Below are positions 19,702 through 43,097 of a DNA stretch of 64,000 nucleotides, one piece after another (positions within the stretch are counted from its first letter, which is position 1; each line of letters begins with the position of its first letter). The notes beneath the pieces are model-generated. The model worked only from the letters and a program-made list of their open reading frames with translations. It had not been told where the DNA came from and did no database searches. This DNA comes from a plasmid, in the sequence record NZ_CP084013.1; one strand, written 5' to 3'. A program made the position numbers and the translations under genes.

Positions 19702-20751
19702 TCAGCCCAACAAAACCCGCGACACCGCCCCCTCATCAGGCAACCCGGAATCCAACAATTCAGCCAAACGCGACGCAACACGATCGGCATCAACACCGGT
19801 GAACATGCCACCCATCCATTCGGACATCAGCGTCCGGACATGCTCGCAGTCGGCGGAATGCACGTGACGTGCGGGACCTTTGCTCTCATCCACTACTTCA
19901 GCCTCAAGGGGAATATCAGCCGACTCGCTCTGCGCAGTCTGTCGCGTTGGAGCATCGGTGCGAGGATAATACTTGATCCCATGCCTGAACGGTTCGGCCC
20001 TCAAATTCGGAGCCGCCTCCAAGACATTCGACAACGCCTGTTTGAACCTGCGCCGGAAGTCCTTCATCGGCAGGCCGGTGCCCTCGAACTGGTCATACAG
20101 TTGACGCCATGAAACGTAGGCGACGTGGTCGAGCCGGTATGTGCGGTACGTCAACCATATATAGACGTCCAACGCCCGCGCCGATTTGCCCAGACGCGAG
20201 ATGACATCCATGCTGAGTGGGACGCTTGGCTTCGACAGCTCGGCCCACATCTCGTCCGTGAACTGGATTGACGCGATGATGTCCTGTTCTGGCCTGAACT
20301 GTGTACGGCCTTTTCTGGCGACGGTGAACGGCGTGCATTCGCCTTTGTTCTCACGACTCTCGTCGGTGTTCATGATGGAGATCGAGGTTCGCGCCAAGTT
20401 CATCAGCGTGTCCTCCGTCTCTTTCTGACAGCCGGAGTGGTTGGATATTCCGGTGTTGTCGCAGAATTCCTGGAAGCTGCCACGAAAGACAACAGTGTGG
20501 GTGTCCTGATCCACGTCGGGATTGTTCTTCATGCGAATCATGGACTGCACGTAGAGGAATATCAGTCGCGGGGTTTTCCCGTAGACCCATTCCTCGGGGC
20601 GACTGGGGGTTATGCGGACTGTTTCCCGACCGTTCGTTCTCTCTATGTAGGATGAGCTTGGTTTCGACACGGGGAAGAGGGCGAGTTTCGCCATGAGCGG
20701 CGGTGCGCCCGTGTTCATTTTCGTTGTGGCGATGGCGTTATTATTGGTCAT
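19702..20751 (-). CDS. RepA-like iteron-type replication initiator (paralog 1)
   Basis: paralogous to 42011..42991 (shared MTNN start and DVYIWLTYRTYRL / DVYVWLTGTFRNL blocks); an iteron array lies immediately 5'; family assignment not verified. Confidence 0.5.
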   Translation of the reverse strand: MTNNNAIATTKMNTGAPPLMAKLALFPVSKPSSSYIERTNGRETVRITPSRPEEWVYGKTPRLIFLYVQSMIRMKNNPDVDQDTHTVVFRGSFQEFCDNTGISNHSGCQKETEDTLMNLARTSISIMNTDESRENKGECTPFTVARKGRTQFRPEQDIIASIQFTDEMWAELSKPSVPLSMDVISRLGKSARALDVYIWLTYRTYRLDHVAYVSWRQLYDQFEGTGLPMKDFRRRFKQALSNVLEAAPNLRAEPFRHGIKYYPRTDAPTRQTAQSESADIPLEAEVVDESKGPARHVHSADCEHVRTLMSEWMGGMFTGVDADRVASRLAELLDSGLPDEGAVSRVLLG

Positions 20752-20845
20752 GTGGTCGCTCCGTTTCAGCGATTGCCAGATACCCGGCCGGTACGAACGG
20801 TGCGGGTATCTTTTTTCTTTTCGTCGTTATTTTATCGCGTTTTTC

Positions 20846-21090
20846 TTAGAATTTTGACACCTTTCTTAGAATTCTGACACCAAATTTAGAATTTGGACAC
20901 CATTTTTAGAATTATGACACCTTTCTTAGAATTTTGACACCATCTCTGCGAATGCCATCGAACCACACCCCGATTGCCTACGATCAGAGCGGTCACAGCC
21001 TTAGAATTTTGACACCCTCGCTTAGAATTTTGACACCGACTCTTAGAATTTTGACACCCGTTCTTAGAATTTTGACACCGACATGGCCTC
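20846..21090. repeat. iteron array: about 9 direct repeats of TTCTTAGAATTTTGACACC (period about 22 bp) in two clusters
   Basis: five copies at 20846-20945 and four at 20999-21085, directly upstream of the rep gene. Confidence 0.75.
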
Positions 21091-21124
21091 TCAGCCCTTA
21101 TGGCAGTAGGGCTAAGCGGCACCC

Positions 21125-21163
21125 CCAAGTGATATTACAAGTGATATTACAAGTGAATATACA
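21125..21163. repeat. 3 tandem 13-bp repeats (AAGTGATATTACA)
   Basis: agtgatattaca agtgatattaca agtgaatataca, followed by the CT-rich ctctctcttaatctctctc. Confidence 0.5.
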
Positions 21164-21365
21164 AACTCTCTCTTAATCTCTCTCCACTTCGACCCGCGAT
21201 CCACCGGGATGCCGCTGACGCGGCAAATGCCACACGCTCTCCTGCACCTGTTTCGACCTCGGAAAAGAAGAATCCAGTCGGTTCGCTTGGCAGCGAACCT
21301 CAGAGCAAACAAAAAAAAAGACTGAATCTCGGACGAACAGGATTGCCGTACTCGTTCTTTCTAGT

Positions 21366-21404: not shown

Positions 21405-21415
21405 TCGAAGATAGA

Positions 21416-24400
21416 TTGACAATCATGGCAAGCAGAAACAGCAGGAGCAGAACACAGACCCGTCCTATATCGAGTGGCGTCTGGTTTTCGCTGTTTCTTG
21501 TCTTTGGAATTATCCTCTGGTTCTTTTGGCGCCTGCCCTTGGTCCCGTTCCTTTGGCTTGGCATGCTCGCCGGAGGAATCACACAACAGTATCCGGTCAA
21601 CGCTTCCGGAAGCCGCAAGGATCCCCCATCCGACAAGCAGATGATGGTCTACCACCGTTGGAAGGACATGCTTGCCGGTCTTATTCCGAATGCGGATTGG
21701 CTGGAGATTCGTCGTGTTTCCTGGTGGATGGGCTGGATGGGCGGCATGCTGCTGGGATTGAACGGTGCCGTCTGGATTGCCCTGGTGGATGGCCTGTTCG
21801 GTTTCATGCTCGCCCAAGGCTGGTCGCATTACAGGAATCGGCGCGTTGACCGTAGGCATGTCTACAAGGGCGTCAGTATTCCGGCGTTCCTGACCAAATC
21901 GCCCGCCTGGGCGCGGCTTTTGTCCGTCTCCATGGCGTTGCTGGTTTTCGCCGGGGTCCTGGTTTTCGTGTTGGCGGGATACATGAGCTGGCTGAGCGCT
22001 GTGACGCTTCCGGGGTTCGTGTTCCTGCTACTCGTATGGATGTTGGGGCGCAAACCGCAGTCCCGGTACTGGCGTGAGCTGGTCGAAGGGCAACAGCTGC
22101 TTGATGGTTGGCTTGCCGGGGACGATTTGCAGAAGGCATGGTCGGGAGCCTATCTGACGCAGGTCAACAAAATCGGTTCTTCGGATAATCCTCTGATCGT
22201 CTACCGGATTCGTCTGCAGGGGTCGGACGGTAAGCCTCGCTCGAACGAAGGAGTTTTCAAGCTCGGCGTGGAAGCGTTGCGGGCGCCGGCATTGGCGGAC
22301 GGATACCGTTTCGTGTGTCTACTGTCCGCCAAGCAGAAGAAGAAAGGGGCGGAACAGTTCGACCCGTCCAGTGTCCGTCTGGCGCTTGGCATGGACGAAT
22401 CCTGCATCCCCTCCATCGCGGAGAGAAAGGCCGGCGAAGGTCTTGCCTCTCTCGTCGCCGACATCGCCTATGCGCAAACCGCTTTCATCTGGCATAAACG
22501 CGCCCCGTTGACGTTGGCTCATGATGTGAGCGCCGACGAGAGCAAAGCCGCCTGGCTGTTGGAGATCATCACTCCCCCGCAGGGCGGGGATTCCATCGAC
22601 CGCATCAGCTTCGACTGGCTGGAGGGAGAAGGATCTCCTGCCGAGACTCTGCGGATGCCGGTGTTCGCCGACCTGCAGGACAAGTTCCACCTGGTTGCAT
22701 TCGACGATGCGAAACTATCCGACAAGGGCAACAAGTGGCGGCCGGACGGCATGACCCACAAGAAAGCCTTTGACGATTACATCACCATTTCCAAACGGTT
22801 CAAAAGCGACCAGTCCGCTTGGGTCAAATGCCTCCCGTCGAAACTCAATCCACCGGCACCCATCTACGACTATGAGAAAACCCAGGACTGCGACGGCTGG
22901 CAACTGCATTACCTGCCATTGGTACTCACCGCACCAGCCACGCCGTCCGACTACGAGCGTTGCGACCTTGGCCCATTGCAGCCGGAGGCACGGTTCATCG
23001 GACTCGTGGACGAAGGCTCCGACATGGCCGGACTGATCTGGTCCACCGGAAGCGCGCCCGTACGCATCGACCAGCTGACCGGCAACACCCCCCTTCACCG
23101 CAAGTATGCGGAAGCGTTGATATTCAAAACCCTTATCGACGTGCTTCCCGCAAAAGCGTCCGTGAACATCACGGCCTGCACTCCGCAAAGCAAAGACAAG
23201 CCGATTTGGAGCATCCAATTCCAATTAGGCAACGGCGCGACCGTGGAAGACGCCCGCAAACAGTCCGCCAGAATCCAATCGTCGGTCGGGGCGAAACATA
23301 TTTACTGGGAATGGCGGTCAGCCGACAGTGCGACCGTATGGCTGTGCGACGACCCGTGCCTGGATGTCAGGGACATCAGCCACTGGAATCGCAGATCAAA
23401 GCAAAAGCATCTCATCGAACTCGCCTTAAGCGACTCGTGGGGCGTGGCCGGAGTCAGCGATCCCAGCGGACGCACCCCCGATGTGGTCAGTCTCGGCGCG
23501 TTGCCAAGCAACCATGACGTGTTGTTGGCACGATTCCAGATTCCGGCCGGGTTGGATGTGGACAAGCCCTCACGGAACATAGGCAAGTTCCTGACCAGCG
23601 CAGACTACGCCTACGGGCGTATCCTCCCGCGCGGTGAGGAACACGGTTCGAACCTGTACGACATGGTGCTGGCGAAACGCAGCCCGTTCCCCACCATGGT
23701 CAACGCGGACTGGGATTTCGCCCGCCAGTCGAAACCACGCATGTTCCCGTTGGGCGTGGACGATATGGGCAAACCGGTCTACTGGAGCATGAAGGACACG
23801 TTCCACCTGCTCATCAGCGGCAAATCCGGAACCGGTAAATCCTCCATCGCGCAGATCGTGGTCGCCGAAGCGCTGCTCAAAGGCCATGACATCATCCTCA
23901 TCGACCCATCCAAAGGTTGCATCGACTTCACTCAATGGGCGAAACCGTTGGCGTTGGCGTTCGTCGGCTTGGGCCAGATGCGCGAAACCGAAGCCGTCAT
24001 CGCCTGGCTGCGCAACGAGATGGCACAACGGGTGAAACTGTTCAGCCGGTATGGTGTCGGCAGCATCTACGACCTCGACAAAAGCCAGCTCAATGAGGAA
24101 GAGCTTGCCCACACGAAACCCATCGACATCGTGTTCGACGAATTCAACAGCTACCTGCAAGAGGCCGGCAAGACCACGCAGAACCCGAACAGGGACATCC
24201 AGCTGGCCAACGACAATGCGGCCGTCAGCGCGACGAACAATTCGATACGACGCACCATGAGCGCTCTCGGCAAAATCGTCGTGCAGGGGCGTACCGCAGG
24301 CATCAGCGTCATCCTCGGCGCCCAGCGTCTGACCATGGACGACATGAAGCCGTACAACGCGAACGCCTTCTTCCGTTCGCTCGGCCGAATCCTGTTGGGT

Positions 24401-24823
24401 ATGGACTCCACGGCGGGCATCATCAGCGCGCAGAACCTCAGAGAGGCGAACCGGCTCCAACAGTCGTTGAAGGGCGAAGGCGGGAAAATCCCGCAGGGCC
24501 GCGGAATCTTCGAAACCGCGCAAGGCGAACTGCTGGCCGTCCAAACATGGTGGTCGGGAGGCCAAGAAAAGTTGGCGGAACTGTTCGCCGACCGCACTCC
24601 CCCGCAACCCATCGACTATTCGCGGTTCATGCCATCCGAAGCGGAAACCTACGGCGAAGTGTCCGAAGACGAACTTTCCAAGCTGCTCAGCCAAGGAACG
24701 GATCCACAGACAGCCGGCGAGGAAATCAACGACATGGACGAACTCCACGACATGCTCCACCACCCAGACAACAACGATGCCGATTCCGAAGACGGGGACG
24801 ACATCGAAGAAGTCGACTGGTAG
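21416..24823 (+). CDS. FtsK/SpoIIIE-like DNA translocase with N-terminal polytopic membrane domain (TraB/TcpA-like)
   Basis: about 6 TM helices; Walker A GKSGTGKS, Walker B IVFDEF, motor motif VILGAQRL. Confidence 0.7.
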   Translation: MTIMASRNSRSRTQTRPISSGVWFSLFLVFGIILWFFWRLPLVPFLWLGMLAGGITQQYPVNASGSRKDPPSDKQMMVYHRWKDMLAGLIPNADWLEIRRVSWWMGWMGGMLLGLNGAVWIALVDGLFGFMLAQGWSHYRNRRVDRRHVYKGVSIPAFLTKSPAWARLLSVSMALLVFAGVLVFVLAGYMSWLSAVTLPGFVFLLLVWMLGRKPQSRYWRELVEGQQLLDGWLAGDDLQKAWSGAYLTQVNKIGSSDNPLIVYRIRLQGSDGKPRSNEGVFKLGVEALRAPALADGYRFVCLLSAKQKKKGAEQFDPSSVRLALGMDESCIPSIAERKAGEGLASLVADIAYAQTAFIWHKRAPLTLAHDVSADESKAAWLLEIITPPQGGDSIDRISFDWLEGEGSPAETLRMPVFADLQDKFHLVAFDDAKLSDKGNKWRPDGMTHKKAFDDYITISKRFKSDQSAWVKCLPSKLNPPAPIYDYEKTQDCDGWQLHYLPLVLTAPATPSDYERCDLGPLQPEARFIGLVDEGSDMAGLIWSTGSAPVRIDQLTGNTPLHRKYAEALIFKTLIDVLPAKASVNITACTPQSKDKPIWSIQFQLGNGATVEDARKQSARIQSSVGAKHIYWEWRSADSATVWLCDDPCLDVRDISHWNRRSKQKHLIELALSDSWGVAGVSDPSGRTPDVVSLGALPSNHDVLLARFQIPAGLDVDKPSRNIGKFLTSADYAYGRILPRGEEHGSNLYDMVLAKRSPFPTMVNADWDFARQSKPRMFPLGVDDMGKPVYWSMKDTFHLLISGKSGTGKSSIAQIVVAEALLKGHDIILIDPSKGCIDFTQWAKPLALAFVGLGQMRETEAVIAWLRNEMAQRVKLFSRYGVGSIYDLDKSQLNEEELAHTKPIDIVFDEFNSYLQEAGKTTQNPNRDIQLANDNAAVSATNNSIRRTMSALGKIVVQGRTAGISVILGAQRLTMDDMKPYNANAFFRSLGRILLGMDSTAGIISAQNLREANRLQQSLKGEGGKIPQGRGIFETAQGELLAVQTWWSGGQEKLAELFADRTPPQPIDYSRFMPSEAETYGEVSEDELSKLLSQGTDPQTAGEEINDMDELHDMLHHPDNNDADSEDGDDIEEVDW

Positions 24824-24847
24824 CCAAACACAAAAAGGGGAAACAAC

Positions 24848-25567
24848 ATGCTCATCAACCTAGGAACAGACGTTCACGGGAAAAACCTTGGATGGGACAC
24901 GTCCACGGGAACGTCACTCACCATCACCGGGCCCGACGGAAGCGGGAAAACCATACTGCTTGACAGCATCATCCGACAGGCAGATCAGGACGGCACGCTC
25001 GTAACCTTCACCGACCAGCGGGACAGCATCCCACCCTCCCCCACCATCATGTGCGGACGCTACCGGCAACCCTATGAGCTACTGGAAATAGTGCAACGGG
25101 TCAGCATGGAACAGCGACGGCGCATCAAGGGCGAACCCGAGCCGATCAAGCCGATCAAGCCGATACTGCTCGCCTTCGATGACTATGACGTACACAACGG
25201 CTCCCCGGACATGAATCTGCTAAACGTCGGCAGTCAAATCTCCGACGAACTCAGCCGAATCATCGAAATGGCACCCGGAACGAACGTCAACGTGGTCATG
25301 GTCCGCAGCAGCATTCACCCATCCACAGTGGGTCAAAAGCTCTACGACCGGCTTATCGCCGGCAACCATGTGCTATTCCATCCGGCCGGACAGCTCGGCC
25401 CGCACACGCAACCTCTTTTCCACGCCGAAAACACCCGTGAAGCCGAAACCCTCACCTATCTCAACCGGCATTTGGACTTCAAACAGGCCCGCAATTGCCT
25501 GTACGAAACATCAGACAGGCCACTCCGGGCTTTCCATACCCCCATCTACAAGAGAAAGGAAAACTGA
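24848..25567 (+). CDS. small P-loop ATPase (degenerate FtsK-like domain)
   Basis: GPDGSGKT Walker A and LLAFDDYD Walker B. Confidence 0.45.
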   Translation: MLINLGTDVHGKNLGWDTSTGTSLTITGPDGSGKTILLDSIIRQADQDGTLVTFTDQRDSIPPSPTIMCGRYRQPYELLEIVQRVSMEQRRRIKGEPEPIKPIKPILLAFDDYDVHNGSPDMNLLNVGSQISDELSRIIEMAPGTNVNVVMVRSSIHPSTVGQKLYDRLIAGNHVLFHPAGQLGPHTQPLFHAENTREAETLTYLNRHLDFKQARNCLYETSDRPLRAFHTPIYKRKEN

Positions 25568-27414
25568 TGGCCGACCGTCGAAAGAAAATCCCTCTCGAAA
25601 AATTCTTCCCCAATGGTTTTGATAAAACCAATCCGGACGACATGATCAAACTCACCGTCCTCATCCAAGAGAAAGCCGCAAAGAACCCTGAGTTTGAAGG
25701 CTACAGCGTATTCAGCGTCGATTCCGACAACCGGTACGCGATCATCGCGCCGATGGATATGGATTCCGATGATATCAACAACGGAATCAAAGCCGTCAGA
25801 CTCAGCAACAGCGAATGCGCGGACACGGCTTCCCAGAAGAAGACGGTGCAGAACCTGGAAAGCCAACCCCAGTACGAAGGCTATTCCGTCGTCGATTTCG
25901 TTCGAATCAGTTCCAGCGAATTCCTTGTGTTGCTCCAACAGTTGGACGAGAAGGCCGCAGCCACCCGGCGTATATTCGCGAACGTTCTCAAGGTCAAGCC
26001 TTGGGAAATTCGTATCTCACGTACTCCTGAGAACGGTTGGAAAATCCGCATCAAGGAGAACACCGTCACCTATCAGGCCTCCGTATACGACAAGCGAATG
26101 CAGGAAGCCGTCGAAGTGGTCGGCAAAAAAGGCTGGTTCTTCAAGGCCGACCCCGAAAAAGGCGTCATCATGGTGTATCCCGGCACTCCCCCGACTTTTC
26201 CTGCGATGATAACCTGCCCGAAACAGCTGATCGGTAAAAACGACCTACGTCACGCCTATCTGGGCATGAAGCTGCCCGAACGAGGCCGCGAAACCGGCGA
26301 CTGGCTGTCACTCGACTGGAAGTCCGGCCCGGGAATCATGGTCGCCGCCGCAGCCAACAGCGGGAAAAGCGTTGTCATCAACACGCTCATCGCCGCCGCA
26401 CTGGAAGCCGGATTCCAGCTTGCCATCTGCGACGACGAGGACAAGAGCGTCGATTTTCAATGGTGCCGCCCATGGGTCATCACCCACGGCTGGGGTTGTG
26501 ACAGTCCCGAATCGGCTGCCGCGACGTTGATTCATGTGCTTGAGATCTGCTCCTACCGGTCGAAACTCATCAAACAGTACGGTGTCGAAAACTGGTGGGG
26601 GCTTCCCAAGGAAGAACAGGAAAAGAACCCCCTGCTGCTGCTTGTGTGCGATGAGGTGGCCCAATGGGCCGGAAGCGTCACCATTCCAAAGGTCAGCAAG
26701 GACAATCCGATGCGCATCCGAGCCGAGTATGAGGCAAGCATCCATGCGGCGAATATCACGTACGCGATGAAGATCACCCAGAAAGCCCGGTTCTCCGGTG
26801 TCTGCTTCCTGTTCTGCGGACAATCGACCCGCCTGCAGGACGGTTTCGACCCCGGTATGCGAGTCAATCTGACCACGGTCATCTCCCCTACCCTGCAACC
26901 CTCCACCGCTGTCGAAGAGCTGCTGGGAGGAGCGAAGGACTTCCCCGAGATACCGGAAAACATCATGCAACCGGGAATCTCCAGAGGAGCCGGCCTTATC
27001 AGGCTTCCCGGCATGAAACCCGTCATCTACAAGGGCTTCTACGAGGAGAACCAGAAGCAAAGGAAATCATACAGCGATCTGCTGCGTGAACGTCTGACCG
27101 CAATCCGACCGCCGGAAGGCGACATGAACTCGGGACACTGGTCATGGGATGAAATCGTAAATGCCCTGCCAACCGCCGCAGAAAAACCAGATGACGGCAT
27201 GATTGACCCCGGCGGGGATGAGGACGACGGGTTCCCCACAGACGGTTTCGGCGAGGACGGGCGTGATGTCGCAGACCGTGACAAGCCGTTGAAGGGTGCC
27301 GCCGCTGCGGCGCATGCGAGCAAACTGTATGCGGCTGGCGTTGATGTGCCGCACATGAGCGCCATCGATGCCGCTATGAATATCGGGCGCCTATCTGCCG
27401 AAAAAGGTCTATGA
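25566..27414 (+). CDS. FtsK/HerA-superfamily ATPase (soluble)
   Basis: Walker A AAANSGKS and Walker B LLLVCDEV; start taken at MADRRKK after a ggaaa RBS. Confidence 0.65.
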
Positions 27415-27422
27415 CATAGGAT

Positions 27423-29690
27423 GTGTTGATGTTGGCGAAGGATGATGATTGGCTGACGGCGGGGAATCAGTTGGATGATTCCCTGTTGATGGATGATTTG
27501 TGGGATGATGATGCAGCTCCACAGGATGACAAAGGCACAGCGTCACATTCCACTGGTTCCACATTCCCACAGGACAATGCGGAAACGCTTCCACAGAAAG
27601 GCGATGGTGCAGGAAGTAGTTCCAATGTACCCACAGTTCCGCAATCCAACAGGGAATCCATTCCCGGTGAAAATGCGAACACGTTTCCACAGTATTTTGA
27701 TGACTCATTTCCACAGTCTGACGAAAGCACAACCCATCAGTCCGACAGCAACCCATTTCAACAGGAAGACGTAGACCCATTCCAACAGGATGACAGTCAA
27801 TTGTCTACACAGGAGAAAGAGGAATCGTTTTCACGTTCCAATGATTCCACTGTTTCACGTTCCAACAGCGCATCACTTTCACAGGAAGACGCGGAAACGA
27901 TTCCTCATTCCACTGAACACACAGTTCCACAGTCCGACAAAACGACAGATTCGCAGGACAGCAAAGGCACAGCTTCACGTCCCATCAGGACGACAGCCCC
28001 CCAGAACACTGTCGACCCAGTTCAACAGGACACTGCGGATACGACTCCACAGGAGAATGCGAAAAACCCCGATCAGATAGACCTACTCGCCAACGGCTAC
28101 GACCCGTTCAAGGAATTCATCGACTCAGCAGAAGACCATAACGACAAGAAATCAGAAGAACAGTCTGCTGTTTCCGCATTTCCGCAGAACAATGAGGAAA
28201 CACGGGAACAAGGAAAAGGCCCGGAGGAATACGACCCGTTCGAGCAATTCGACCTGCAATCGGACGATTCCAGCGAACCGACAACGGAACAGAACGAACG
28301 TCGAGACGACAACATCATACAAGACAGTTCCGCAGATTCAAAGAAAAACGTTGATATGCAGGAACAGGGAGACATTGAAACTGTTTTCCCATCCAATGTT
28401 CCTATGCAAAATCAATGGAACAGCGAAACAGAAGAACAGTATGACAGTTCGTCCTTCCAACAGGAAGACAGTTCCCCAGTAAGACAGGACACTGGCGAAA
28501 CATACCCGAAGGACACGGACTCTGCGGATCCATTCGACCTTTGGGATGACCCATCCGAACCTCCGGAGGGGGGACCACAAACATCGTCCCCATCCGCCGG
28601 AAGCCTTGGCGCGGATGATTACCCAACGCAAACATTCCAGACGGGAGATGACTTTTGGAGCCAGACGGACGACGAATCGAACGATCAGTGGAATACAGGC
28701 CAGCAAACGAATGGCATGCCCCCGCAACAATTCGACAATCCGCCATTCCCACAGGTAAATGTCTTCCCAGTTGAACACCAGTATGATTCCCCATTCCCAC
28801 AGGAAAACACTGATACAGAAAATAGGGGAAATGGTGGAACGCTGATAAAGATTATCGCAGTCGCGGCCGCCATACTCATAGGCCTCGGAGCACTGATAGG
28901 CGGGGGAGCGTACACCTATCACGCATACACCACTCACGTCGCGGAACAGCAGGCCGAAGCCGACCGCAAACAGCGCCAACAATCCCTGGTGAAGGCACAG
29001 AACAAATGGGACGGGAGGAAACGGAAGGCCGATGACCTGGTCTCCACGATCAAAGCCAGTCCCGTCGCGGAAAACAGCGACGTGCAAAAAGCCATGGAAG
29101 CCCTCCAGAAAACAACCACAGGGAATCCGATGACTGAAAAAGACATCACATCGGCCCTGGAAAAACTGGACGGCGAATATGAGAAAACCAACAGAACCTA
29201 CACGGATGCAATGCAGGCAAAAGCCAAGGAAACCAGAACGACACTCGACGGTCTGGTACAGCAGGCAAATGGTCTTGCTGACGCTCCTGACGGCAACGAC
29301 AAGAAGCAGATGCAAAGCCTCGCATCCCAGTGGAAAAGCACGGAAATAACGTCTGACAACCTGTCCGACGCTATTTCGGCTTCGACCGAGCTGAAGAACC
29401 TCATCTCCAAAGTGGATAAAGCCAAGAAGGATGCGGACGCGAAGAAGAAAGCCGAGGAAGAGGCCAAGGCAAAAGCGGAAGCGGAACGACAGGCCCAAGC
29501 CCAACAGGAGCAGCAGCAGGCGCAGCAGCCTCAGCAGAATCCATACGGGAACATGTACTACTGGGGCGGGGGATATGGTTCGACTGGTGGATCAACCGGC
29601 GGATCAACCGGCAACAGTGGGGGAGGGGTATCCCCGCAACCGCAGCAGGAGATGCCACCCAAGGGCAACAGTGGCGGCAACGTCGGCTGA
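27423..29690 (+). CDS. repetitive acidic low-complexity protein (FPQ/FQQ repeats), single TM, C-terminal coiled-coil and Gly-rich tail
   Basis: about 20 repeats of short (F/V)PQ/Q-containing acidic units; TM LIKIIAVAAAILIGLGALIGG; Lys/Ala/Glu coiled coil; GGSTGGSTG tail. Confidence 0.55.
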   Translation: MLMLAKDDDWLTAGNQLDDSLLMDDLWDDDAAPQDDKGTASHSTGSTFPQDNAETLPQKGDGAGSSSNVPTVPQSNRESIPGENANTFPQYFDDSFPQSDESTTHQSDSNPFQQEDVDPFQQDDSQLSTQEKEESFSRSNDSTVSRSNSASLSQEDAETIPHSTEHTVPQSDKTTDSQDSKGTASRPIRTTAPQNTVDPVQQDTADTTPQENAKNPDQIDLLANGYDPFKEFIDSAEDHNDKKSEEQSAVSAFPQNNEETREQGKGPEEYDPFEQFDLQSDDSSEPTTEQNERRDDNIIQDSSADSKKNVDMQEQGDIETVFPSNVPMQNQWNSETEEQYDSSSFQQEDSSPVRQDTGETYPKDTDSADPFDLWDDPSEPPEGGPQTSSPSAGSLGADDYPTQTFQTGDDFWSQTDDESNDQWNTGQQTNGMPPQQFDNPPFPQVNVFPVEHQYDSPFPQENTDTENRGNGGTLIKIIAVAAAILIGLGALIGGGAYTYHAYTTHVAEQQAEADRKQRQQSLVKAQNKWDGRKRKADDLVSTIKASPVAENSDVQKAMEALQKTTTGNPMTEKDITSALEKLDGEYEKTNRTYTDAMQAKAKETRTTLDGLVQQANGLADAPDGNDKKQMQSLASQWKSTEITSDNLSDAISASTELKNLISKVDKAKKDADAKKKAEEEAKAKAEAERQAQAQQEQQQAQQPQQNPYGNMYYWGGGYGSTGGSTGGSTGNSGGGVSPQPQQEMPPKGNSGGNVG

Positions 29691-29793: not shown

Positions 29794-30969
29794 TCAGAAC
29801 ATGTCGGGATAATCCTCATCGTCCACGTCATCATCTTCAACCTCGACAGGAGCCGGCTTACGACGGCCCCACGAAGAGGTCTTCTTCGGACGATGGCGCG
29901 GAGCTTCCTCCTCGTCCTCGTCCTCGTCCACGTCATCATCTTCAACCTCGACAGGCTTCGGACGACGACGGGAAACGGCAGCCTTGCGACGTGGCTTGAC
30001 CGCGATTTCACCGGTATCCTCGTCCACCTCATCATCGGAATCAGCCTCATCGAAGTCAGTATCCGCAAGAAGGGCCGCCTCATCATCGGCCTTGGAAGGC
30101 TTTGCGTTCACATGCTTGTCTCGCCAAGCGATAAGAGCCTCGATATCCTCATCGGTGAAGTCCTCATCGTATTCGAAGCTTCCATCTCGCACGCCTCCGC
30201 CAACAATCGTGAGATTATCCAAACGATAGCTGACACCGCTACCGGTCTGAGTCTTCCACGCACGTGCCGTAACCGAAGCCTGCACGTTCTGACCGGGATA
30301 CACCAGCTTATCCCATAAGACCTTGACTTCCTTGGCCTTGGCATCACGCTCCTGAGCCTCCTCAAGATTGCGCGTCGCCTCCAGAACGAGCGTCTTCGCC
30401 TCCTCCCGAGCGTCTTCATCAGCCGTAGCGTAAGCGGCTCGGGCATCATTAAGATTGGCTTGAGCGGCCTGAATGTCCTCCTTTGTCCCGAGAATCGGTT
30501 CGGGGAGCTCACGCAGGATTCCTTCATCGTCGATGTAGCGGATTCCGGGACGACCAGCCTTGGAGCTACGACTGAAGTTCACATAAAAATGGTTGGCTCG
30601 ATTCGGATATTTATCGGTCATGAGGACGGTTTTATCACCGTCAAGGATTTCATCCTCGTCGGCATCCTTGAGACCGTCATTGGAAACGATACGATCCTTC
30701 TTGCCCCATTTCTTCAAGGCGATGGCGTTGGCTTCCGCATTCTTGCTCAGCTTCTGAAGGATTCGGACGGTTCGCATGTGATCGGGGTCATCCTTGTCGA
30801 GAAGCACAGGGAACCCGTATGCAGGCGTGCTTTCGTTTTTCTTCTTATCGTCCTTCTTGGCGGACTTGTCATCGTCCTTGTTTCCCTTGAATGCGACCGC
30901 CTCGTAGAGCTTGGGCCATCCCATCTGGATGACTCCGGTTTTCGCGTGAGTTAGCAGTTCTGTTGCCAT
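29794..30969 (-). CDS. hypothetical protein with SSB-like acidic C-terminal tail (ends DDEDYPDMF)
   Basis: a 30-nt direct repeat within the gene encodes the duplicated PVEVEDDDVD unit; start taken at MATELL. Confidence 0.45.
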   Translation of the reverse strand: MATELLTHAKTGVIQMGWPKLYEAVAFKGNKDDDKSAKKDDKKKNESTPAYGFPVLLDKDDPDHMRTVRILQKLSKNAEANAIALKKWGKKDRIVSNDGLKDADEDEILDGDKTVLMTDKYPNRANHFYVNFSRSSKAGRPGIRYIDDEGILRELPEPILGTKEDIQAAQANLNDARAAYATADEDAREEAKTLVLEATRNLEEAQERDAKAKEVKVLWDKLVYPGQNVQASVTARAWKTQTGSGVSYRLDNLTIVGGGVRDGSFEYDEDFTDEDIEALIAWRDKHVNAKPSKADDEAALLADTDFDEADSDDEVDEDTGEIAVKPRRKAAVSRRRPKPVEVEDDDVDEDEDEEEAPRHRPKKTSSWGRRKPAPVEVEDDDVDDEDYPDMF

Positions 30970-32986: not shown

Positions 32987-33012
32987 CAGTAAAGACGACA
33001 GAACCAACGCCA

Positions 33013-34059
33013 ATGCCATCAGCACCTCGAACACGCCGGACAACATCCAGCAATCCAAGAAAACCAGCCAACTACAAACGCAGAGGCTACGCCCACGAGT
33101 TCACCATCCCAATCGAATGGTGGAGTACGACCGACACCATACAGACGGAACGCATGCGAGCCAGACGAAGGGCATGGGTGAGGGACTACGCGAAAAACGA
33201 ATGGCGCAACCTCAAGAAAACAGGAAAAGCCTGGAAAGTGGAACGGTTCATCGCCCTTATAGGCGTAGCCTGTCCAAGCCAGAAAAACATTTTCCCGGCG
33301 AGAGCGGCCGAAACCATCAAACCCATCATCGACGGTGGCAGTGATGCCCGACTCTGGGACGACGATGACAGCCAGCACCGGCACAGCACCGTATACATCC
33401 AACTGCCAACACCGGCACCAGTCAACCATTACAGGCTGAGCGTGCTCATCATCCCGGTGCCGGAATCAATGCCGAAATACCAGATCACCTCACGTCTCGC
33501 ATCGAACATCGACCAGCATTGGCGAAATAATCCCAATCCGCCGGCATGGCACGACGGGTACTCGGTGTCATTCACGATTCCCGACAAACAGTGGATAACC
33601 AGCAACTATACGGATAGTGACCTCATCGCCAGACAGAACGGCGAACGGAAATCAGCCACATGGGGGAGGGGAGGCAGCTTCGGCATTCGGGAACGAGTAC
33701 GCGCACAACTCATCGAACTGGCCTTCCAACAGTGGAAAAGACAAGCCTACCGTCCGTATGAAAGATTCGCCATCATCGCCGGAATCGCATACCCGTACGG
33801 GGTGAAAACCGCCGACCCTGACAATGCGGCGGAAACGGTGAACACCATACTGCATTCGGGAACCCGCATCGGAGCCTGGCCGGATGTGAACAGCCAGCAT
33901 TGCAGGGGAGTGGCTTTCGTACGTCTGCCGAATCTCATGACGGGAAACCATATGGTCAGACTTTTTGTTTTCCCGGTGCCCGAGAATTTTCAGATGGCGC
34001 AGAGCATAGCCGAAAGCTCCATCGACGCTTGGGGCGAACATGATCGGAGGATGCGTTGA
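33013..34059 (+). CDS. tandem-duplicated RusA-like Holliday-junction resolvase (single-chain pseudo-dimer)
   Basis: two homologous halves; the second keeps DPDN...WPDVNSQ, matching RusA D-x-D-N...W-L-D-D; the first half is degenerate. Confidence 0.5.
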   Translation: MPSAPRTRRTTSSNPRKPANYKRRGYAHEFTIPIEWWSTTDTIQTERMRARRRAWVRDYAKNEWRNLKKTGKAWKVERFIALIGVACPSQKNIFPARAAETIKPIIDGGSDARLWDDDDSQHRHSTVYIQLPTPAPVNHYRLSVLIIPVPESMPKYQITSRLASNIDQHWRNNPNPPAWHDGYSVSFTIPDKQWITSNYTDSDLIARQNGERKSATWGRGGSFGIRERVRAQLIELAFQQWKRQAYRPYERFAIIAGIAYPYGVKTADPDNAAETVNTILHSGTRIGAWPDVNSQHCRGVAFVRLPNLMTGNHMVRLFVFPVPENFQMAQSIAESSIDAWGEHDRRMR

Positions 34060-38311: not shown

Positions 38312-38326
38312 GACCATTCCCGGAAC

Positions 38327-39207: not shown

Positions 39208-39330
39208 CGAAACAGGAGACCTCATGCTAATTGCCATCATCTGCCTATTTACGGGCTTCACCCTTGGCTTCTTCACCGCAGCCCTATGCCAAGCAGCATC
39301 ACACTCAGATTCTGACAGAAAGGACAACCA

Positions 39331-39513
39331 ATGAAAAACAACTGGTTCTGCCCCAACTGCGGGCAGCCGATGGAAGCGCAACGCCACGTGGACAATCCCA
39401 CCGGCCGTATCACATGGACAATCGGCTGCCTCAACCCGAAACACTTCCACACGCGCGGCTACATGAACGCCGCCATCGCCGAAATCCAACTCGAAAAACT
39501 CCTCCACCAGTGA
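39331..39513 (+). CDS. small zinc-ribbon protein
   Basis: CPNCGQ...; stop overlaps the GTG start of the methyltransferase. Confidence 0.35.
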   Translation: MKNNWFCPNCGQPMEAQRHVDNPTGRITWTIGCLNPKHFHTRGYMNAAIAEIQLEKLLHQ

Positions 39514-41210
39514 AATACGTCAGCATCTTCAGCGGCATTGAAGCCGCCACCGTCGCATGGCATCCACTGGGATGGGAGCCGCTGGCCTTCAGCGAAATCG
39601 ACCCATTCCCCTCAACCGTCCTGCAACACCATTACCCGGATATCCCGAATCTTGGAGATATCACGAAAATCGATTGGAGCCCGTATGTGGGAGCAGCAGA
39701 CATTGTTGTCGGAGGTAGCCCCTGTCAAAGCTTCTCTGTCGCAGGCAAGAGGGAAGGACTCGCAGGAGCTTCCGGACTCATGTTCGAATACATTCGAGCG
39801 GTACGTGAACTCCGTCCACGTTGGTTTGTCTGGGAGAACGTCCCAGGAGCGTTCACAAGCGAGCGGGGGGAGGCTTACCGCCAGCTCCTGTCAGAGATGG
39901 ATGCGCTCGGGTATGGTCTGGCATGGCGAGTATTGGATGCGCAGTTTTTCGGTGTGGCCCAAAGACGCGAGCGTGTGTTCCTTGTTGGAAGTCTTGGAAC
40001 CATGCGTTGCGCGGAAGTACTTTTTGAGCGCGAAAGCCTGTCGTGGAATCATCAGTCGAGCCGACAGAAGAGGCAAGCCCTTACCGAAGAGGCTCAGGAA
40101 CGCGTTGGAGAAGCAGATCATGATTCTGGCTGCCTGAATCCCGGCGAAACCCAGAGTCGAAGGGTTTATCCGGCTTCCGGCGTATATCCGACGTTGTCCA
40201 CGAGAGAAAAGTCAGGGCAAAATCAGGAAAGCGTTTTCACCCAGTTCGGTGATGATGTCGCCGGCACTCTCACCTCACGATACGATAGTTCCCCCTGCGT
40301 TGACCGTGGAGCAAACGTCGTCGTTGACGAACGGGATAAAGTATTCCTTTGCCAGACGGCGCAAACCGGCAGCAACGGGAAACTCGTCAAACAGGACGAT
40401 GTAATGAACACGTTGGATCGGACGAACAGCACCGCAGTGGCCGCATTGGACTTCAATCCGACCGATGCCAGACTCCGGTATGCGAATGATGACGTCAGCC
40501 AGACATTGACCGCACGGGCCGGAACCGGAGGCAACCAAGTCCCATTGGTGCAGGTGCAGCCGCTCGCGTTCCTGTATAACCAAGGTGCGAAGGCCCGGAG
40601 TCTAGGGATAAGTGAAATAAGCCCTACGTTAAAAACCGACCATAATCCGGTTGCAGCATTCGCTTCAAATCAGCGTGACGAGGTTCGTGAACTGGAAGTC
40701 GCAGGCGCATTGGCCGCGCAGCCTGGCATCAAACAGCAGACGTACATCTGCCGGGCCGACGGACAGACGAACGCGATGGAAGGCGAAAATCTCGCTCCCA
40801 CGTTGACCTCGCACGCGAAGAAGGATCCACCGCTCATCTATCCTGCTGAAGATTCAACCGGGGAAGATGAGCCTGTCACCTCGCAGATTCACGGCGGGAA
40901 ACCCGGCGGCGGGAAAGGTGCCTTAATCCAACGGGATATGAGCGCCACATTGTCCACTCATAACACCCAGACGCCGATAACAGGCGACCACGAGAAGAGA
41001 GATCTCACCGTCCGTCGGCTGACACCACGAGAATGCGAACGCTTGCAAGGCTTCCCCGACGATTACACCGATATCCCATACCGCAACAAGGAACACGCTC
41101 CGGACGGTCCCCGTTACAAGGCGTTGGGCAACAGCATGGCCGTACCGGTCATGCGATGGATCGGAGAACGCATTCGGACGGTCGAAGAAGCCGCCGAAAC
41201 AACCGATTAG
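39510..41210 (+). CDS. DNA (cytosine-5)-methyltransferase, orphan
   Basis: motif I FSGIEA, motif IV GGSPCQSFS, motif VI ENVPG, C-terminal motifs RECERLQGFPDDY...NSMAVPV; no adjacent restriction endonuclease. Confidence 0.8.
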   Translation: MKYVSIFSGIEAATVAWHPLGWEPLAFSEIDPFPSTVLQHHYPDIPNLGDITKIDWSPYVGAADIVVGGSPCQSFSVAGKREGLAGASGLMFEYIRAVRELRPRWFVWENVPGAFTSERGEAYRQLLSEMDALGYGLAWRVLDAQFFGVAQRRERVFLVGSLGTMRCAEVLFERESLSWNHQSSRQKRQALTEEAQERVGEADHDSGCLNPGETQSRRVYPASGVYPTLSTREKSGQNQESVFTQFGDDVAGTLTSRYDSSPCVDRGANVVVDERDKVFLCQTAQTGSNGKLVKQDDVMNTLDRTNSTAVAALDFNPTDARLRYANDDVSQTLTARAGTGGNQVPLVQVQPLAFLYNQGAKARSLGISEISPTLKTDHNPVAAFASNQRDEVRELEVAGALAAQPGIKQQTYICRADGQTNAMEGENLAPTLTSHAKKDPPLIYPAEDSTGEDEPVTSQIHGGKPGGGKGALIQRDMSATLSTHNTQTPITGDHEKRDLTVRRLTPRECERLQGFPDDYTDIPYRNKEHAPDGPRYKALGNSMAVPVMRWIGERIRTVEEAAETTD

Positions 41211-41269
41211 ACAACAGAAACAGGTGGATCGTCGCAGAAGAGGGGGCGACGTTCCTCAAAAAAACAATA

Positions 41270-42020
41270 CAGCGATAGGCCACGATCTTGTTCAGGATTT
41301 CCTTTTGTTCGGCGAAATCACCAGAAGCAAGAAGAATCATGGCCGTCGCTCGACTCCGCAAGGAAAATCAAGTGGACAACACCCTCCTAGGAGATCAAGA
41401 TCGTGGCCTATCGGTGTAAATGTATTCACCGATAGGCCACTATCGTTCGTTCTCGTTCTTACTGCTATAAAAGAGTATGTCCAGTATGTAGTATGACTAT
41501 AAGCACTGCCCGTCAGCCCTTATAGGAGAAGCGGTTTGAGCAGGTTCGTTACACCGATAGTCCACGGATTCGGCAGTGATATTCCACGGAAACGACACTG
41601 ATAGGTCACTAAAACAGCAGCGATAGTCCACTATCATTGCATGGATACTCCACGTTGCAAGACCATCGTCAAAGGCGATTGCACCGATAGTCCATCATTG
41701 GATGCACCGATAGGCCACTATCCGCGAAAAGTGCCGGATAGTGGCAGTATACAAGGCATGGAACCGTCGGATAAGCAACGCAGTAATACTGCGGAAGAAA
41801 GGTTTTTGCACCGATAGGCCATCAACAGAGACAAGAAAACAGCATCGATAGGCCACTACGTGTGGGATGAAATCCACGAATCAACTTCAAAAAAATTGGG
41901 AAACTGCACCGATAGGCCACGTGTCGATACAGCGATATGCCATCAGCATCAAAAACCGACTGCATTAAGCACTGATCTGCATCAGCGAATAAGGTGGGAC
42001 GATTAGTGGCCTATCGCTGC
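41270..42020. repeat. array of at least 12 copies of CACCGATAGGCCAC-like 14-mers (both orientations)
   Basis: copies near 41276, 41403, 41428, 41551, 41596, 41620, 41685, 41708, 41738, 41810, 41848, 41901, 41926 and 42005; about 750 bp without a credible ORF. Confidence 0.7.
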
Positions 42021-42991
42021 CAATCGCCCCGCCCCTCGTCCAAAGCACGCCGTTCCGCCTTGGGTGGGACGGACGTTGGCGACGGGTGCAGGATGATGCC
42101 GTCCCGGGTGGTTTCCACGTTCGCGGCGGGATACACGTCGTGAATCTTCTTCAATGCTTCACGGAACTTGGCTTTGAACACGCGGCGTTCCTTGATGCTG
42201 TCGCCGAAACGTCCGTGCAGCCAATCCCAATCCAATGTGAGGTCGTGATGCAGGTTGCGGAATGTTCCGGTCAGCCACACGTACACGTCGTAGGGGAGCA
42301 CTGATTTGCCGGACAGCAGGTAGTTGGTGGCACGAGTGTCGAATGGTGCCGACTCCTGGGCGAGCCTGTCCCACACTTCATCGGTGAGGATGAACTTGGC
42401 GCCGCTGAAATCCTGATTATTGTTATCGTTCAGGAAGCTGACGGCCTTCACCATCTGCATGTTCACGGAGTCGAACCGATCCCGGTTGCCCGCAAACCCG
42501 GTTTTCTGCCTGATGCTGATATGACAGTACAGGAGACGGCGCAACTGTTCCTGCAAACGTTTCGATGACTGTCCTCCACGGGGTATGCCGAGCTCTTCGG
42601 ACAACTGGTACATGCTGGGAATCGTGATGGTGTGCTGCGACGGGTCAACGGTCGGGGTTTTCCTTGTTCCCGCAGAGCGAATCTGCTTTGCCATCCACGC
42701 CATCAACAGTCGGGGATATTTCCCGTAGGGGAAGTCCCTTGACCTGGTGAGGCTATCGATACCGGCTTCGAGGATGTATTCGACGGTACTGTTGTCTTTG
42801 CTGACGAAGTCGGTGCCTTCCGCCGGGGGAGTGGCGGGGAAAAGGGTGCTGGTGAGGATGCTGTGCCCGTACCAGATTTCCTTACTGTCCGGCAAACGGT
42901 TTTCGATGTCTGAGATCGTGGCTACCCGGTCGAGCACGAGGTCGGTTGAATGGGTAGCTGGTTTCGTGTTGTCCGGACTGTTGTTGGTCAT
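42011..42991 (-). CDS. RepA-like replication initiator (paralog 2)
   Basis: paralog of 19702..20751; 14-mer array at its 3' side; motif-2 copy about 110 bp upstream. Confidence 0.5.
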   Translation of the reverse strand: MTNNSPDNTKPATHSTDLVLDRVATISDIENRLPDSKEIWYGHSILTSTLFPATPPAEGTDFVSKDNSTVEYILEAGIDSLTRSRDFPYGKYPRLLMAWMAKQIRSAGTRKTPTVDPSQHTITIPSMYQLSEELGIPRGGQSSKRLQEQLRRLLYCHISIRQKTGFAGNRDRFDSVNMQMVKAVSFLNDNNNQDFSGAKFILTDEVWDRLAQESAPFDTRATNYLLSGKSVLPYDVYVWLTGTFRNLHHDLTLDWDWLHGRFGDSIKERRVFKAKFREALKKIHDVYPAANVETTRDGIILHPSPTSVPPKAERRALDEGRGDWQR

Positions 42992-43097
42992 GGTTCTCTA
43001 TGGTAGCGGCAATCAGCGGAATACGAAAAAACGATGTTTGGTGGCGCTTGTCCGGGTTTTCCCCGGTGCGACACGCCGTATATCAAACATATTTTTT

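Follow-up and report, generated by a model that had tools for sequence, protein, structure and literature searches.

The window, i.e., the whole analyzed stretch of 64,000 nucleotides of the plasmid record NZ_CP084013.1, encodes two RepA-like proteins, each beside its own array of short repeats. Which of the two loci starts replication, and what is the other one kept for? The initial annotation, whose interpretation as a whole was partly supported by our analysis, proposed either a cointegrate or dual-replicon element or one initiator accompanied by a centromere array. In our opinion the window very probably carries the two-Rep backbone of a conjugative megaplasmid of the pMP7017 family, in which RepB would act as the vegetative initiator and RepA as an auxiliary protein.

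The element and its two Rep proteins

The window represents a megaplasmid of Bifidobacterium longum that belongs to the pMP7017 family, and is 96–98% identical at the DNA level to RefSeq B. longum plasmids. Both rep regions are homologous and syntenic with those of pMP7017 (85–87% DNA identity) and of the B. longum megaplasmids. In pMP7017-type Bifidobacterium megaplasmids the two rep genes with their repeat arrays make up the replication backbone, which is already known and was previously dissected experimentally (PMC8313286, Dineen et al. 2021). All functions assigned to the present plasmid are predictions carried over by homology from this relative of 85–90% identity.

The two paralogous genes had been delimited correctly by the initial annotation (Table 1). 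RepA and RepB are homologous, with 26% identity over 286 aa (E = 5e-21), and the Pfam check proposed at that time placed both of them in RepA_C (PF04796; 44.0 bits, E = 3.9e-11 for RepA and 41.4 bits, E = 2.3e-10 for RepB), above the gathering cut-off of 26 bits. NCBIfam gave no model for either protein, and searches of their sequences against the PDB chains returned noise only, so a fold comparison was needed. The AF2 models (pLDDT 82 for RepA; pLDDT 89.4 and pTM 0.86 for RepB) both matched RepE54 and RctB domains 2–3 in Foldseek at a probability of 1.0. The best E-values to RctB domains 2–3 were 3e-8 and 3e-6 for the two models, and the target TM-scores to RepE54 chains were in the range of 0.52–0.66, as expected for two tandem winged-helix domains. 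The RepA model additionally matched 8ac8, a complex of a Rep protein with single-stranded DNA of the DNA-unwinding element (DUE). Each Rep protein is accompanied by cognate direct repeats adjoining an AT-rich region. No Pfam or NCBIfam match to relaxase (HUH, Rep_trans) or primase domains was detected in either of them, the two classes of proteins that would have contradicted the initial annotation. The sequence matches and the models thus support the classification of RepA and RepB as RepA-type iteron initiators with a predicted double winged-helix fold.

Table 1. Positions of the features of the two rep loci in the window (L004 and L005, contigs of two distant lineages with related repA loci)
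Feature	Position	Strand	Basis or remark
repA (paralog 1), 349 aa, orthologue of pMP7017 RepA	19702..20751	-	PF04796; 90% protein identity to pMP7017 RepA; AF2/Foldseek
repA leader and promoter	20752..20845	-	Sequence; transcription start by homology
RepA iteron cluster 1, five units, 20-bp spacing	20842..20941	+	One unit more than in pMP7017
RepA iteron cluster 2, four units, 21-bp spacing	21000..21079	+	Repeat scan
35-bp imperfect palindrome, core AGCCCT...AGGGCT	21086..21120	.	Alignment with pMP7017
Three tandem AT-rich 12-mers (CAAGTGATATTA twice, CAAGTGAATATA)	21126..21161	+	Candidate DNA-unwinding element
CT-rich tract CTCTCTCTTAATCTCTCTCC	21166..21185	+	Kept in pMP7017, not in L004/L005
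FtsK/SpoIIIE ATPase (1135 aa), small P-loop ATPase (239 aa), second FtsK-like protein (639 aa)	21416..27414	+	Divergent from repA
Outlying RepB iteron, B18 equivalent	41266..41285	-	Alignment/motif
Inverted RepB iteron pair, B17 and B16 equivalents	41401..41442	.	Alignment/motif
AT-rich stretch, candidate unwinding site	41443..41547	.	Alignment to pMP7017
Tandem RepB iteron core, exact 22-bp spacing, starts 41548, 41570, 41592, 41614, 41636	41548..41655	-	Alignment
Irregularly spaced RepB iterons, starts 41678, 41701, 41805, 41839, 41903, 41926	41678..41945	-	B11–B2 zone
RepB iteron over the repB stop codon, B1 equivalent	42004..42023	+	Motif/alignment
repB (paralog 2), 326 aa, orthologue of the experimentally verified pMP7017 initiator	42011..42991	-	PF04796; 89% protein identity to pMP7017 RepB; AF2/Foldseek
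Isolated RepB-type 20-mer in the tRNA array	46877..46896	-	Motif scan

The repeat array behind repB

About 13 repeats spread over 750 bp in both orientations had been noted at paralog 2, and this description was confirmed. With up to three mismatches allowed, CACCGATAGGCCAC occurs there in 13 copies (41270–42019, 750 bp), of which 11 share one orientation and 2 have the opposite one, and a looser scan added two degenerate units at 41570 and 41636. Across the whole window 22 matches were found versus 5.6 expected, and none of 100 shuffles reached 22. The position of the array relative to repB had to be corrected: it lies downstream, not upstream, filling the gap between the 3' end of the gene and a convergent methylase gene, with its last copy on the stop codon. 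The published B-repeat consensus, hvrTGGmCTATCrsTGhmdh, fits the array, whose CACCGATAGGCCAC sites form the cores of the RepB 20-mer iterons. The critical bases GGnCnAnnR of this consensus are all intact in 11 of the 13 copies, so that at least 11 such 20-mers stand downstream of the RepB orthologue together with the two degenerate units. The equivalents of B18, B17, B16, the AT-rich stretch, B15–B9, and B1 were placed on the window by alignment to pMP7017. An isolated RepB-type 20-mer was also seen inside the tRNA array.

The experiments described for pMP7017 give these elements their meaning. There, repB with the downstream iterons replicated autonomously and a repA fragment did not; repA could be disrupted and repB could not. 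The construct pBif_repA yielded zero transformants, a failure which the study reports for B. breve UCC2003 only. EMSA showed binding of the 20-mers by RepB, which was lost upon point mutation; B12–B15 and the AT-rich stretch were essential, whereas B2–B4 conferred segregational stability, their deletion destabilizing the mini-replicons at an unchanged copy number (PMC8313286). The same replicon is also the basis of the Bifidobacterium shuttle vector pRD1.3.

The AT-rich stretch of the window (55% A+T vs. 45% in the whole window) is near-identical to the one described as essential in pMP7017 (PMC8313286) and contains TCAGCCCTTAT at 41513. The first four units of the tandem core are the equivalents of the essential B15–B12, and the fifth, at 41636, is degenerate here and in pMP7017. 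Two of these four equivalents bear a substitution at a base whose change abolished RepB binding in pMP7017 (PMC8313286), namely C8>A in the unit at 41570 and G6>A in that at 41592; hence, the origin core may work with fewer sites, or the RepB variant may tolerate the changes. The irregular iterons match the variable B11–B2 zone, the bearer of the stability repeats in pMP7017 (PMC8313286). The gene hptX is absent from the repB region of the window, and the same study reports its absence from all B. longum megaplasmids (PMC8313286). A scan for TTTTACACC, a DnaA-box-like motif of Bifidobacterium, found none in the repA and repB regions, which agrees with what is reported for pMP7017 (PMC8313286). 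Read from left to right, the GC skew of the window switches from negative to positive at 41.5 kb, with the cumulative minimum at 39.6–42 kb; this change of sign falls at the repB array, and no switch accompanies repA (21 kb).

By homology to these experiments, RepB would be the vegetative initiator binding asymmetric 20-mers with CACCGATAGGCCAC cores, and the origin proper would comprise the 22-bp tandem iterons, the AT-rich stretch, and the inverted pair. The DNA is expected to open at the AT-rich stretch and to replicate by the theta mode at about one copy per chromosome. The irregular iterons nearer repB would be dispensable for initiation and help stable inheritance.

The site upstream of repA and its neighbors

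Nine copies of TTAGAATTTTGACACC (up to one mismatch, single strand, 20846–21079) were found upstream of repA, versus 0.33 expected by chance, and none of 100 shuffles reached nine; the published A-repeat motif RGYGTCARWATTCTA had seven exact fits there. The number and position of the iterons had been given correctly in the initial annotation, but not their period of 22 bp: the units form one cluster of five at 20-bp and one of four at 21-bp spacing, 75 bp apart from start to start, hence the period is 20/21 bp. The supposed tandem 13-mer proved to be a tandem 12-mer with two exact copies and a diverged third, and the CT-rich tract was found as described. The A+T content peaks at 75% at the 12-mers, which are a candidate DNA-unwinding element. 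Tandem 20/21-bp iterons followed by three AT-rich 12-mers make up the complete textbook layout of an origin (here oriA).

The first iteron overlaps the -35 position of the repA promoter, of which a -10-like TAAAAT was read from the sequence at 20834..20829. Transcription would start near 20822; in pMP7017 the start lies 71 nt upstream of the ATG (PMC8313286). A consensus promoter scan gave weak sites only, located inside the iterons, and was discarded as evidence. The 35-bp palindrome carries the box TCAGCCCTTAT...AAGCGG, of which a copy also occurs in the repB origin; it is near-identical in pMP7017 and partly kept in L004 and L005. Its predicted hairpin in single-stranded DNA was no more stable than that of shuffled sequence (z = -0.19), so the hairpin was rejected and the palindrome was treated as a duplex binding site.

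The repA-side non-coding elements are almost unchanged relative to pMP7017 while the flanking spacers diverge, and repA itself is under purifying selection (dN/dS 0.108 at dS 0.50 vs. pMP7017). In gut-metagenome loci, the 349-aa reading frame was intact in 40 of 48 cases and the two iteron clusters with three 12-mers were kept in 38 of 45; the number of iterons varied from 5 to 11 among related metagenome contigs. L004 and L005, with RepA only 40–47% identical, have the same succession of iterons, palindrome, three 12-mers, and divergent FtsK operon, although their iteron sequences are unrelated to those of the window. Their FtsK1 and FtsK2 retain 62–64% identity to the proteins of the window; thus, RepA and its iterons diverged faster than the adjoining transfer genes. 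Both contigs end too soon to span any RepB. Three further loci (L071, L073, and L075; RepA 49–73%) were rejected as intermediate lineages: they are contigs of 1–2x coverage with broken frames, their iterons are of the A type found in the window, and their divergence is probably due to assembly errors. A RepA-clade profile scan of species-representative genomes found no bifidobacterial loci and only remote homologues (29–30%) in Hyphomicrobiaceae and Nitrospirae MAGs. The short contigs of the distant homologues P0011 and P0013 (L014 and L015) were set aside because their flanks are too small to be informative; L015 had three 21-bp repeats and L014 had none. The clade of RepB spans 99 clusters versus 15 for RepA.

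The FtsK-like and P-loop ATPase genes divergent from repA are candidate conjugative-transfer genes, i.e., context rather than parts of the origin. The other flank of repA codes for a CHAP lysozyme and for a large ATP-binding protein, which in L005 is an AAA_10 protein. In three metagenome loci IS200/IS605 insertions split the iterons from repA, and one RefSeq plasmid has IS elements between repA and ftsK, which indicates that tight linkage of the parts is not obligatory. pMP7017 is described as conjugative in published work; in all five sequenced relatives, however, MOB-suite failed to recognize a relaxase.

In pMP7017, RepA bound the repeats of its own promoter with a Hill coefficient of about 6, and the repA promoter was repressed 3.7-fold by the megaplasmid (PMC8313286). 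By homology, the RepA of the window, a diverged paralogue of RepB, would bind its nine iterons cooperatively and, since they overlap the repA promoter, repress its own gene. It would be unnecessary for vegetative replication. Judged from pMP7017, the textbook-looking origin beside repA appears not to be the working one; that part would be played by the irregular array behind repB. Purifying selection, mostly intact metagenome copies, and a layout recurring in two distant lineages suggest that the repA unit is probably functional and not a dead remnant. The selection on repA, its intactness in metagenomes, and the recurrent iteron–palindrome–12-mer layout by FtsK-like genes are new here.

Roles of the two loci and related systems

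How firmly can a replicative role of the repA locus be dismissed? The dual replicon of the initial annotation was not upheld in its plain form, as only the repB region was autonomous in pMP7017, in which repA was disruptable (PMC8313286). Both origins might still fire, oriA being used in B. longum, in other hosts, or in the recipient just after conjugation. We regard this as rather unlikely: pBif_repA gave no transformants and repA disruption was viable (PMC8313286), the skew has no switch at 21 kb, and TTTTACACC is absent near both origins. Nevertheless, oriA is textbook-complete, its layout outlived the change of iterons at 40–47% RepA identity, and repA is under purifying selection. RepA and its iterons outpace the transfer genes in divergence, as expected of an incompatibility determinant, the RepA model resembles the Rep protein of 8ac8, and the replication test of repA is reported for B. 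breve only (PMC8313286). Recruitment of RepA as a transcription factor without a replication role, its coat on the iterons controlling the repA promoter as well as the divergent operon of FtsK-like transfer genes, is an explanation that we consider unlikely. It would agree with cooperative binding and repression in pMP7017 (PMC8313286), with the divergent arrangement kept in L004 and L005, and with the location of repA inside a transfer-gene cluster (the ATP-binding protein and CHAP lysozyme on its other side). It leaves the conserved 12-mers and palindrome unexplained, however; ftsK starts 250–350 bp past the last iteron, and IS elements that inserted naturally on the ftsK side or the repA side of the iterons are tolerated.

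That repA and its iterons are the inert remnant of an old two-plasmid cointegrate was raised by Dineen et al. and partly by the initial annotation. Dispensability of repA and its inability to support replication in pMP7017 (PMC8313286), the mere 26% identity of the two proteins, and the far broader RepB clade would fit this view. It is very improbable given the dN/dS of 0.11 at dS 0.5, the largely intact reading frames, non-coding elements that stay near-unchanged among diverged spacers, the layout kept in distant lineages, and the finding of Dineen et al. that RepA is more conserved than RepB (PMC8313286). The backbone as such may have originated as an ancient cointegrate. The remaining proposal, a partition centromere formed by the 14-mers and bound by a ParB-like protein, with paralog 1 as the real initiator, has a next to negligible probability. 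The guess had some basis in the irregular spacing and both orientations of the 14-mers and in the B2–B4 repeats, whose deletion destabilized the mini-replicons at the same copy number (PMC8313286). However, the 14-mers are the cores of sites that in pMP7017 are bound specifically by RepB itself, as established by EMSA and mutagenesis, and the repB region of pMP7017 suffices for replication (PMC8313286). The 14-mer and 20-mer sites are asymmetric, without palindrome or self-complementarity, and the annotation of the corresponding 40-kb stretches in two RefSeq relatives lists neither ParA nor ParB (the PLSDB gene tables being incomplete); thus, neither the palindromic sites nor the adjacent parA–parB operon of a ParB/parS system were found. 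For pMP7017 the ParB-bound centromere is refuted by the mini-replicon and EMSA data (PMC8313286).

We therefore prefer the two-Rep backbone with RepB as the initiator, and infer that RepA, its iterons, the palindrome, and the 12-mers form an auxiliary origin-like module kept by selection and travelling with the conjugation genes rather than a decaying relic. In every megaplasmid of the pMP7017 family a second, highly conserved Rep is kept along with its complete origin-like site, although replication does not depend on them, and purifying selection on repA, the conserved layout with co-varying iterons, and the fixed place by FtsK-like genes argue for a functional unit. A more daring and rather doubtful possibility is that this unit works as a second origin or incompatibility module of the conjugation cluster, e.g., in recipient establishment or host-specific firing. 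If so, initiation for maintenance and for transfer/establishment would be divided between two paralogous Rep proteins in such megaplasmids.

Relatives of these proteins are found in simpler settings. Small Bifidobacterium plasmids such as NC_010908 (2.1 kb), NZ_CP084021 (4 kb), and NC_004252 (10 kb), which are not megaplasmids, have a gene of the same Pfam family annotated as a replication protein, about 30% identical to RepA, and no second Rep. RctB of Vibrio cholerae chromosome 2 was the top structural match of both models (domains 2–3; PDB 5tbf, 5ubf), a likeness of fold only: RctB is a four-domain protein of 658 aa acting on methylation-dependent 12-mers and 39-mers, none of which were seen in the window. 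The double winged-helix fold is common to the Rep proteins of the window and mini-F RepE, R6K pi, pPS10 RepA, and RK2 TrfA, although the structural alignments with the classical iteron initiators have 9–14% sequence identity. The classical iteron plasmids and the window also share tandem iterons, each spanning about two helical turns, beside an AT-rich repeated unwinding element, and the autoregulated rep promoter of the former is matched by that of RepA. RepB departs from them, its iterons being downstream, irregular, and in both orientations; according to the pMP7017 data it forms dimers in solution and shows no binding to the repB promoter (PMC8313286), and no DnaA box was found in the window origins by the TTTTACACC scan.

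The closest counterpart, the RepB replicon of pMP7017 from B. breve JCM 7017, has the same 20-mer consensus downstream of repB, the inverted pair, the AT-rich stretch, the 22-bp tandem core, the iteron on the stop codon, and a tmRNA gene and tRNA array on the promoter side. The window, one more natural variant of this published replicon, differs in having 13–15 repeats instead of 17+1, two core units with critical-base changes, and neither hptX nor the TTTTACACC motif. Since the MmeI-type restriction-modification insertion is lacking, the equivalents of B18 and B17 are 116 bp apart, compared with 2.9 kb in pMP7017. The A1–A8 site of pMP7017 repA likewise has the same 15/16-bp repeat in two clusters, the 35-bp palindrome, the AT-rich 12-mers, and the divergent FtsK/SpoIIIE gene; the window has nine repeats there versus eight, the extra unit being promoter-proximal.

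Two RepA_C proteins on a known backbone

The window very probably carries the known two-Rep backbone of the pMP7017 family, with RepB and its downstream array forming the vegetative theta origin and RepA being an autoregulated, non-essential paralogue. The DNA of both rep regions was 96–98% identical to Bifidobacterium longum megaplasmids and 85–87% identical to pMP7017 (B. breve JCM 7017), whose proteins shared 90% (RepA) and 89% (RepB) identity with those encoded here. The repA locus was also found, at 86–100% identity, on more than 40 human-gut metagenome contigs. The initial annotation had described two paralogous RepA-like genes; both ORFs proved exact, the products are distant homologues (26% identity across 286 residues, E 5e-21), and the Pfam search it had proposed placed each above the curated threshold of RepA_C (PF04796).

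Confident AlphaFold models with 54–55 homologues as input (RepB: pLDDT 89.4, pTM 0.86; RepA: pLDDT 82, pTM 0.72) were compared with the PDB using Foldseek. Both matched RctB domains 2–3 and many RepE54 chains with probability 1.0, and the RepA model also retrieved the Rep–DUE ssDNA complex 8ac8. Because of the RctB and RepE54 matches, both proteins are double winged-helix iteron initiators rather than the relaxases or primases that would have refuted the initial reading. On Bifidobacterium plasmids of very small size, the shortest being 2.1 kb, a RepA_C protein is annotated as the replication protein. The RepA_C family overall appears to comprise real initiators.

The repB array and the probable origin in use

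Exactly these two loci were examined in pMP7017, and the data in this paragraph come from Dineen et al. 2021 (PMC8313286). Autonomous replication, at about one copy for each chromosome, was obtained in both B. breve and B. longum with fragments of 2.4–3.3 kb containing repB and 17 downstream 20-mers (consensus hvrTGGmCTATCrsTGhmdh). Iterons B12–B15 (numbered as in pMP7017) and the flanking AT-rich stretch were essential, and B2–B4 increased segregational stability with copy number unchanged. RepB bound the 20-mers specifically, the critical bases being GGnCnAnnR. Disruption of repB was not obtainable; disruption of repA was obtained, and a repA fragment gave zero transformants. RepA bound eight repeats of its own promoter with strong cooperativity, and the repA promoter was repressed 3.7-fold with the megaplasmid present. 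According to the authors, both rep genes occur in all bifidobacterial megaplasmids, RepA being, if anything, more conserved than RepB, and the B. longum plasmids lack hptX.

In the window, CACCGATAGGCCAC with at most 3 mismatches was present in 13 copies over 41270–42019, 2 of which run opposite to the other 11, and a looser scan of the array added two further degenerate units. About 13 repeats spread over 750 bp in both orientations and abutting the gene had been noted initially, all of which holds; the array lies downstream of repB, its last unit overlapping the stop codon. The published A and B repeat consensus motifs matched both arrays of the window, and the repB layout was obtained by alignment with pMP7017 and a motif scan.

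Features of the two rep loci and their surroundings in the window
Feature	Position	Strand	Remark
repA	19702..20751	-	ORF, 349 aa
Imperfect palindrome, 35-bp	21086-21120		beyond RepA iterons
Three tandem 12-mers	21126-21161		beyond RepA iterons
Tract CTCTCTCTTAATCTCTCTCC			beyond RepA iterons, after palindrome and 12-mers
Enc34-type ssDNA-binding protein	29794-31005	-	
PD-(D/E)XK DUF3799 nuclease	31965-32894	+	
348-aa protein	within 29794-34059		no Pfam match; part of phage-like recombination set
C5 cytosine DNA methyltransferase	39231-41210	+	659 aa; ends 56 bp short of B18-like iteron
RepB iteron	41266		B18-like outlier
RepB iteron inverted pair	41401 / 41423	+ / -	B17/B16
AT-rich stretch	41443-41547		conserved counterpart in pMP7017
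RepB iterons, exact 22-bp ladder	41548, 41570, 41592, 41614, 41636		first four are B15-B12
RepB iterons	41678, 41701, 41805, 41839, 41903, 41926		variable B11-B2 zone
RepB iteron	42004	+	B1, on repB stop codon
repB	42011..42991	-	ORF, 326 aa

The fifth ladder unit is degenerate in the window and pMP7017 alike. All critical bases were kept in 11 of the 13 copies; one was lost at 41570 (C8>A) and another at 41592 (G6>A), and 41926 also lacks the full set. Units 41570 and 41592 (41570–41611) are the counterparts of the essential B14 and B13, and substitution at the positions changed in them abolished RepB binding in pMP7017 (PMC8313286). Both changes are common to the window and plasmid CP143940 and absent from pMP7017 and CP146883.

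GC skew changes sign at about 41.5 kb, from negative on the left to positive on the right; its cumulative minimum falls at 39.6–42 kb, and there is no change at 21 kb on the repA side. This pattern is consistent with repB providing the origin that is used. The initial annotation had alternatively suggested that the 14-mers, the cores of the 20-mers, form a centromere array. Some of these repeats do act in stability, but the pMP7017 data essentially rule out this reading, and by analogy a partition centromere would be an extremely improbable role for them.

The exact 11-mer TCAGCCCTTAT has just two occurrences in 64 kb (21091–21101 and 41513–41523), one in each origin, where it separates the iterons from the AT-rich element, with AAGCGG a few bases after it at both sites; its repB-side counterpart in pMP7017 is TCAGACCTTAC. 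A host factor may use it as a site in both origins, or it may be left over from an ancestor that the two origins had in common.

RepA iterons and the role of RepA

Upstream of repA, TTAGAATTTTGACACC occurs in nine copies of a single orientation (0.33 expected by chance), five promoter-proximal at 20-bp spacing and four distal at 21-bp spacing. Hence the initially reported number and location of the iterons stand, but not their 22-bp period; similarly, the reported tandem 13-mer is a tandem repeat of 12-mers, and the CT-rich tract is present as CTCTCTCTTAATCTCTCTCC. The block of distal iterons, palindrome, 12-mers and CT tract is near-identical to that of pMP7017, the adjacent spacers having diverged. 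Iteron number is polymorphic (5 to 11, mode 9; window 20842–21079 against 45 metagenome loci, L016–L075), and the clusters both gain and lose units at a constant inter-cluster gap of 73–75 bp. In three independent contigs (L025, about 8500–9920; L057; L042) an IS200/IS605-type element separates the -10 box of repA from the first iteron, shifting the iterons ~1.5 kb from an intact repA; the recurrence at one spot, equivalent to about 20835 of the window, suggests an insertion hot spot.

Several observations together argue against the repA locus being a decaying remnant. The gene is under purifying selection (dN/dS 0.108, dS 0.50 versus pMP7017), with a dN/dS of 0.112 between two distant RepA homologues. 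The intact 349-aa ORF was found in 40 of 48 gut-metagenome loci, several of the broken ORFs coming from contigs at only 1–3x coverage, and both iteron clusters with the three 12-mers in 38 of the 45 with sufficient flank. RepA forms a narrow clade of 15 clusters, versus 99 for RepB. At loci L004 and L005, RepA homologues (40–47% identity) are placed as in the window, divergent from an operon for an FtsK/SpoIIIE protein (1102 aa), a small ATPase and an FtsK-like protein (621 aa). The intergenic order is also the same: iterons (21–22 bp spacing), an AGCC(C/T)T...AAGGG(C/T)T element and three AT-rich 12-mers starting CAAG/CAAA; these iterons have no sequence kinship to those of the window. On the other side of RepA, L005 and the more distant L007 carry CHAP-lysozyme genes and, beyond them, a large ATPase candidate (880 aa with a faint AAA_10 match in L005; 1378 aa with no Pfam match on record in L007). 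Since the FtsK-like neighbours are 62–64% identical to those of the window, versus 40–47% for RepA, the joint diversification of RepA and its sites has outpaced that of their surroundings, as is usual for incompatibility determinants. Among the roles considered, a transfer-linked module serving as an auxiliary or conditional origin, or in incompatibility, ranks first, as a doubtful possibility, ahead of regulation of the divergent transfer operon, which is unlikely, and of an inert relic of repA and iterons, which is very unlikely.

Neighbouring genes and comparison with pMP7017

The operon-like block at 21416–29690 (+) encodes two FtsK/SpoIIIE-type ATPases, a small P-loop ATPase and a 755-aa protein without known domains. 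MOB-suite recognised no relaxase in five sequenced relatives, all typed 'non-mobilizable'; pMP7017 has been called conjugative in published work, and DNA-transfer initiation looks uncharacterised. A phage-like recombination set (29794–34059) lies between repA and repB. Just beyond the repB promoter, about 43540–43750, a putative C-terminal TnpB remnant and an IS200/IS605-type right end were seen by eye. They precede a plasmid-borne tmRNA gene (43752–44139, +; Rfam RF00023, 84.5 bits; ARAGORN tag peptide ANTVSSSRFTLVA), adjoined by 20 tRNA genes on one strand (44245–49042, +; ARAGORN), with one weak additional Rfam match at 48759–48830. A tmRNA gene was reported earlier on pMP7017, and the tRNA array is a known trait of its family (PMC10832533).

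The replication backbone of the window is already known, and its own differences are only in detail. Compared with pMP7017, its repeat numbers differ, with one extra promoter-proximal iteron upstream of repA, hptX is missing, two of the core iterons are altered, and the B18 equivalent is adjacent. At the position of the C5 methyltransferase pMP7017 carries an MmeI-type restriction-modification system, so restriction-modification genes appear to be exchanged at this flank of the origin.
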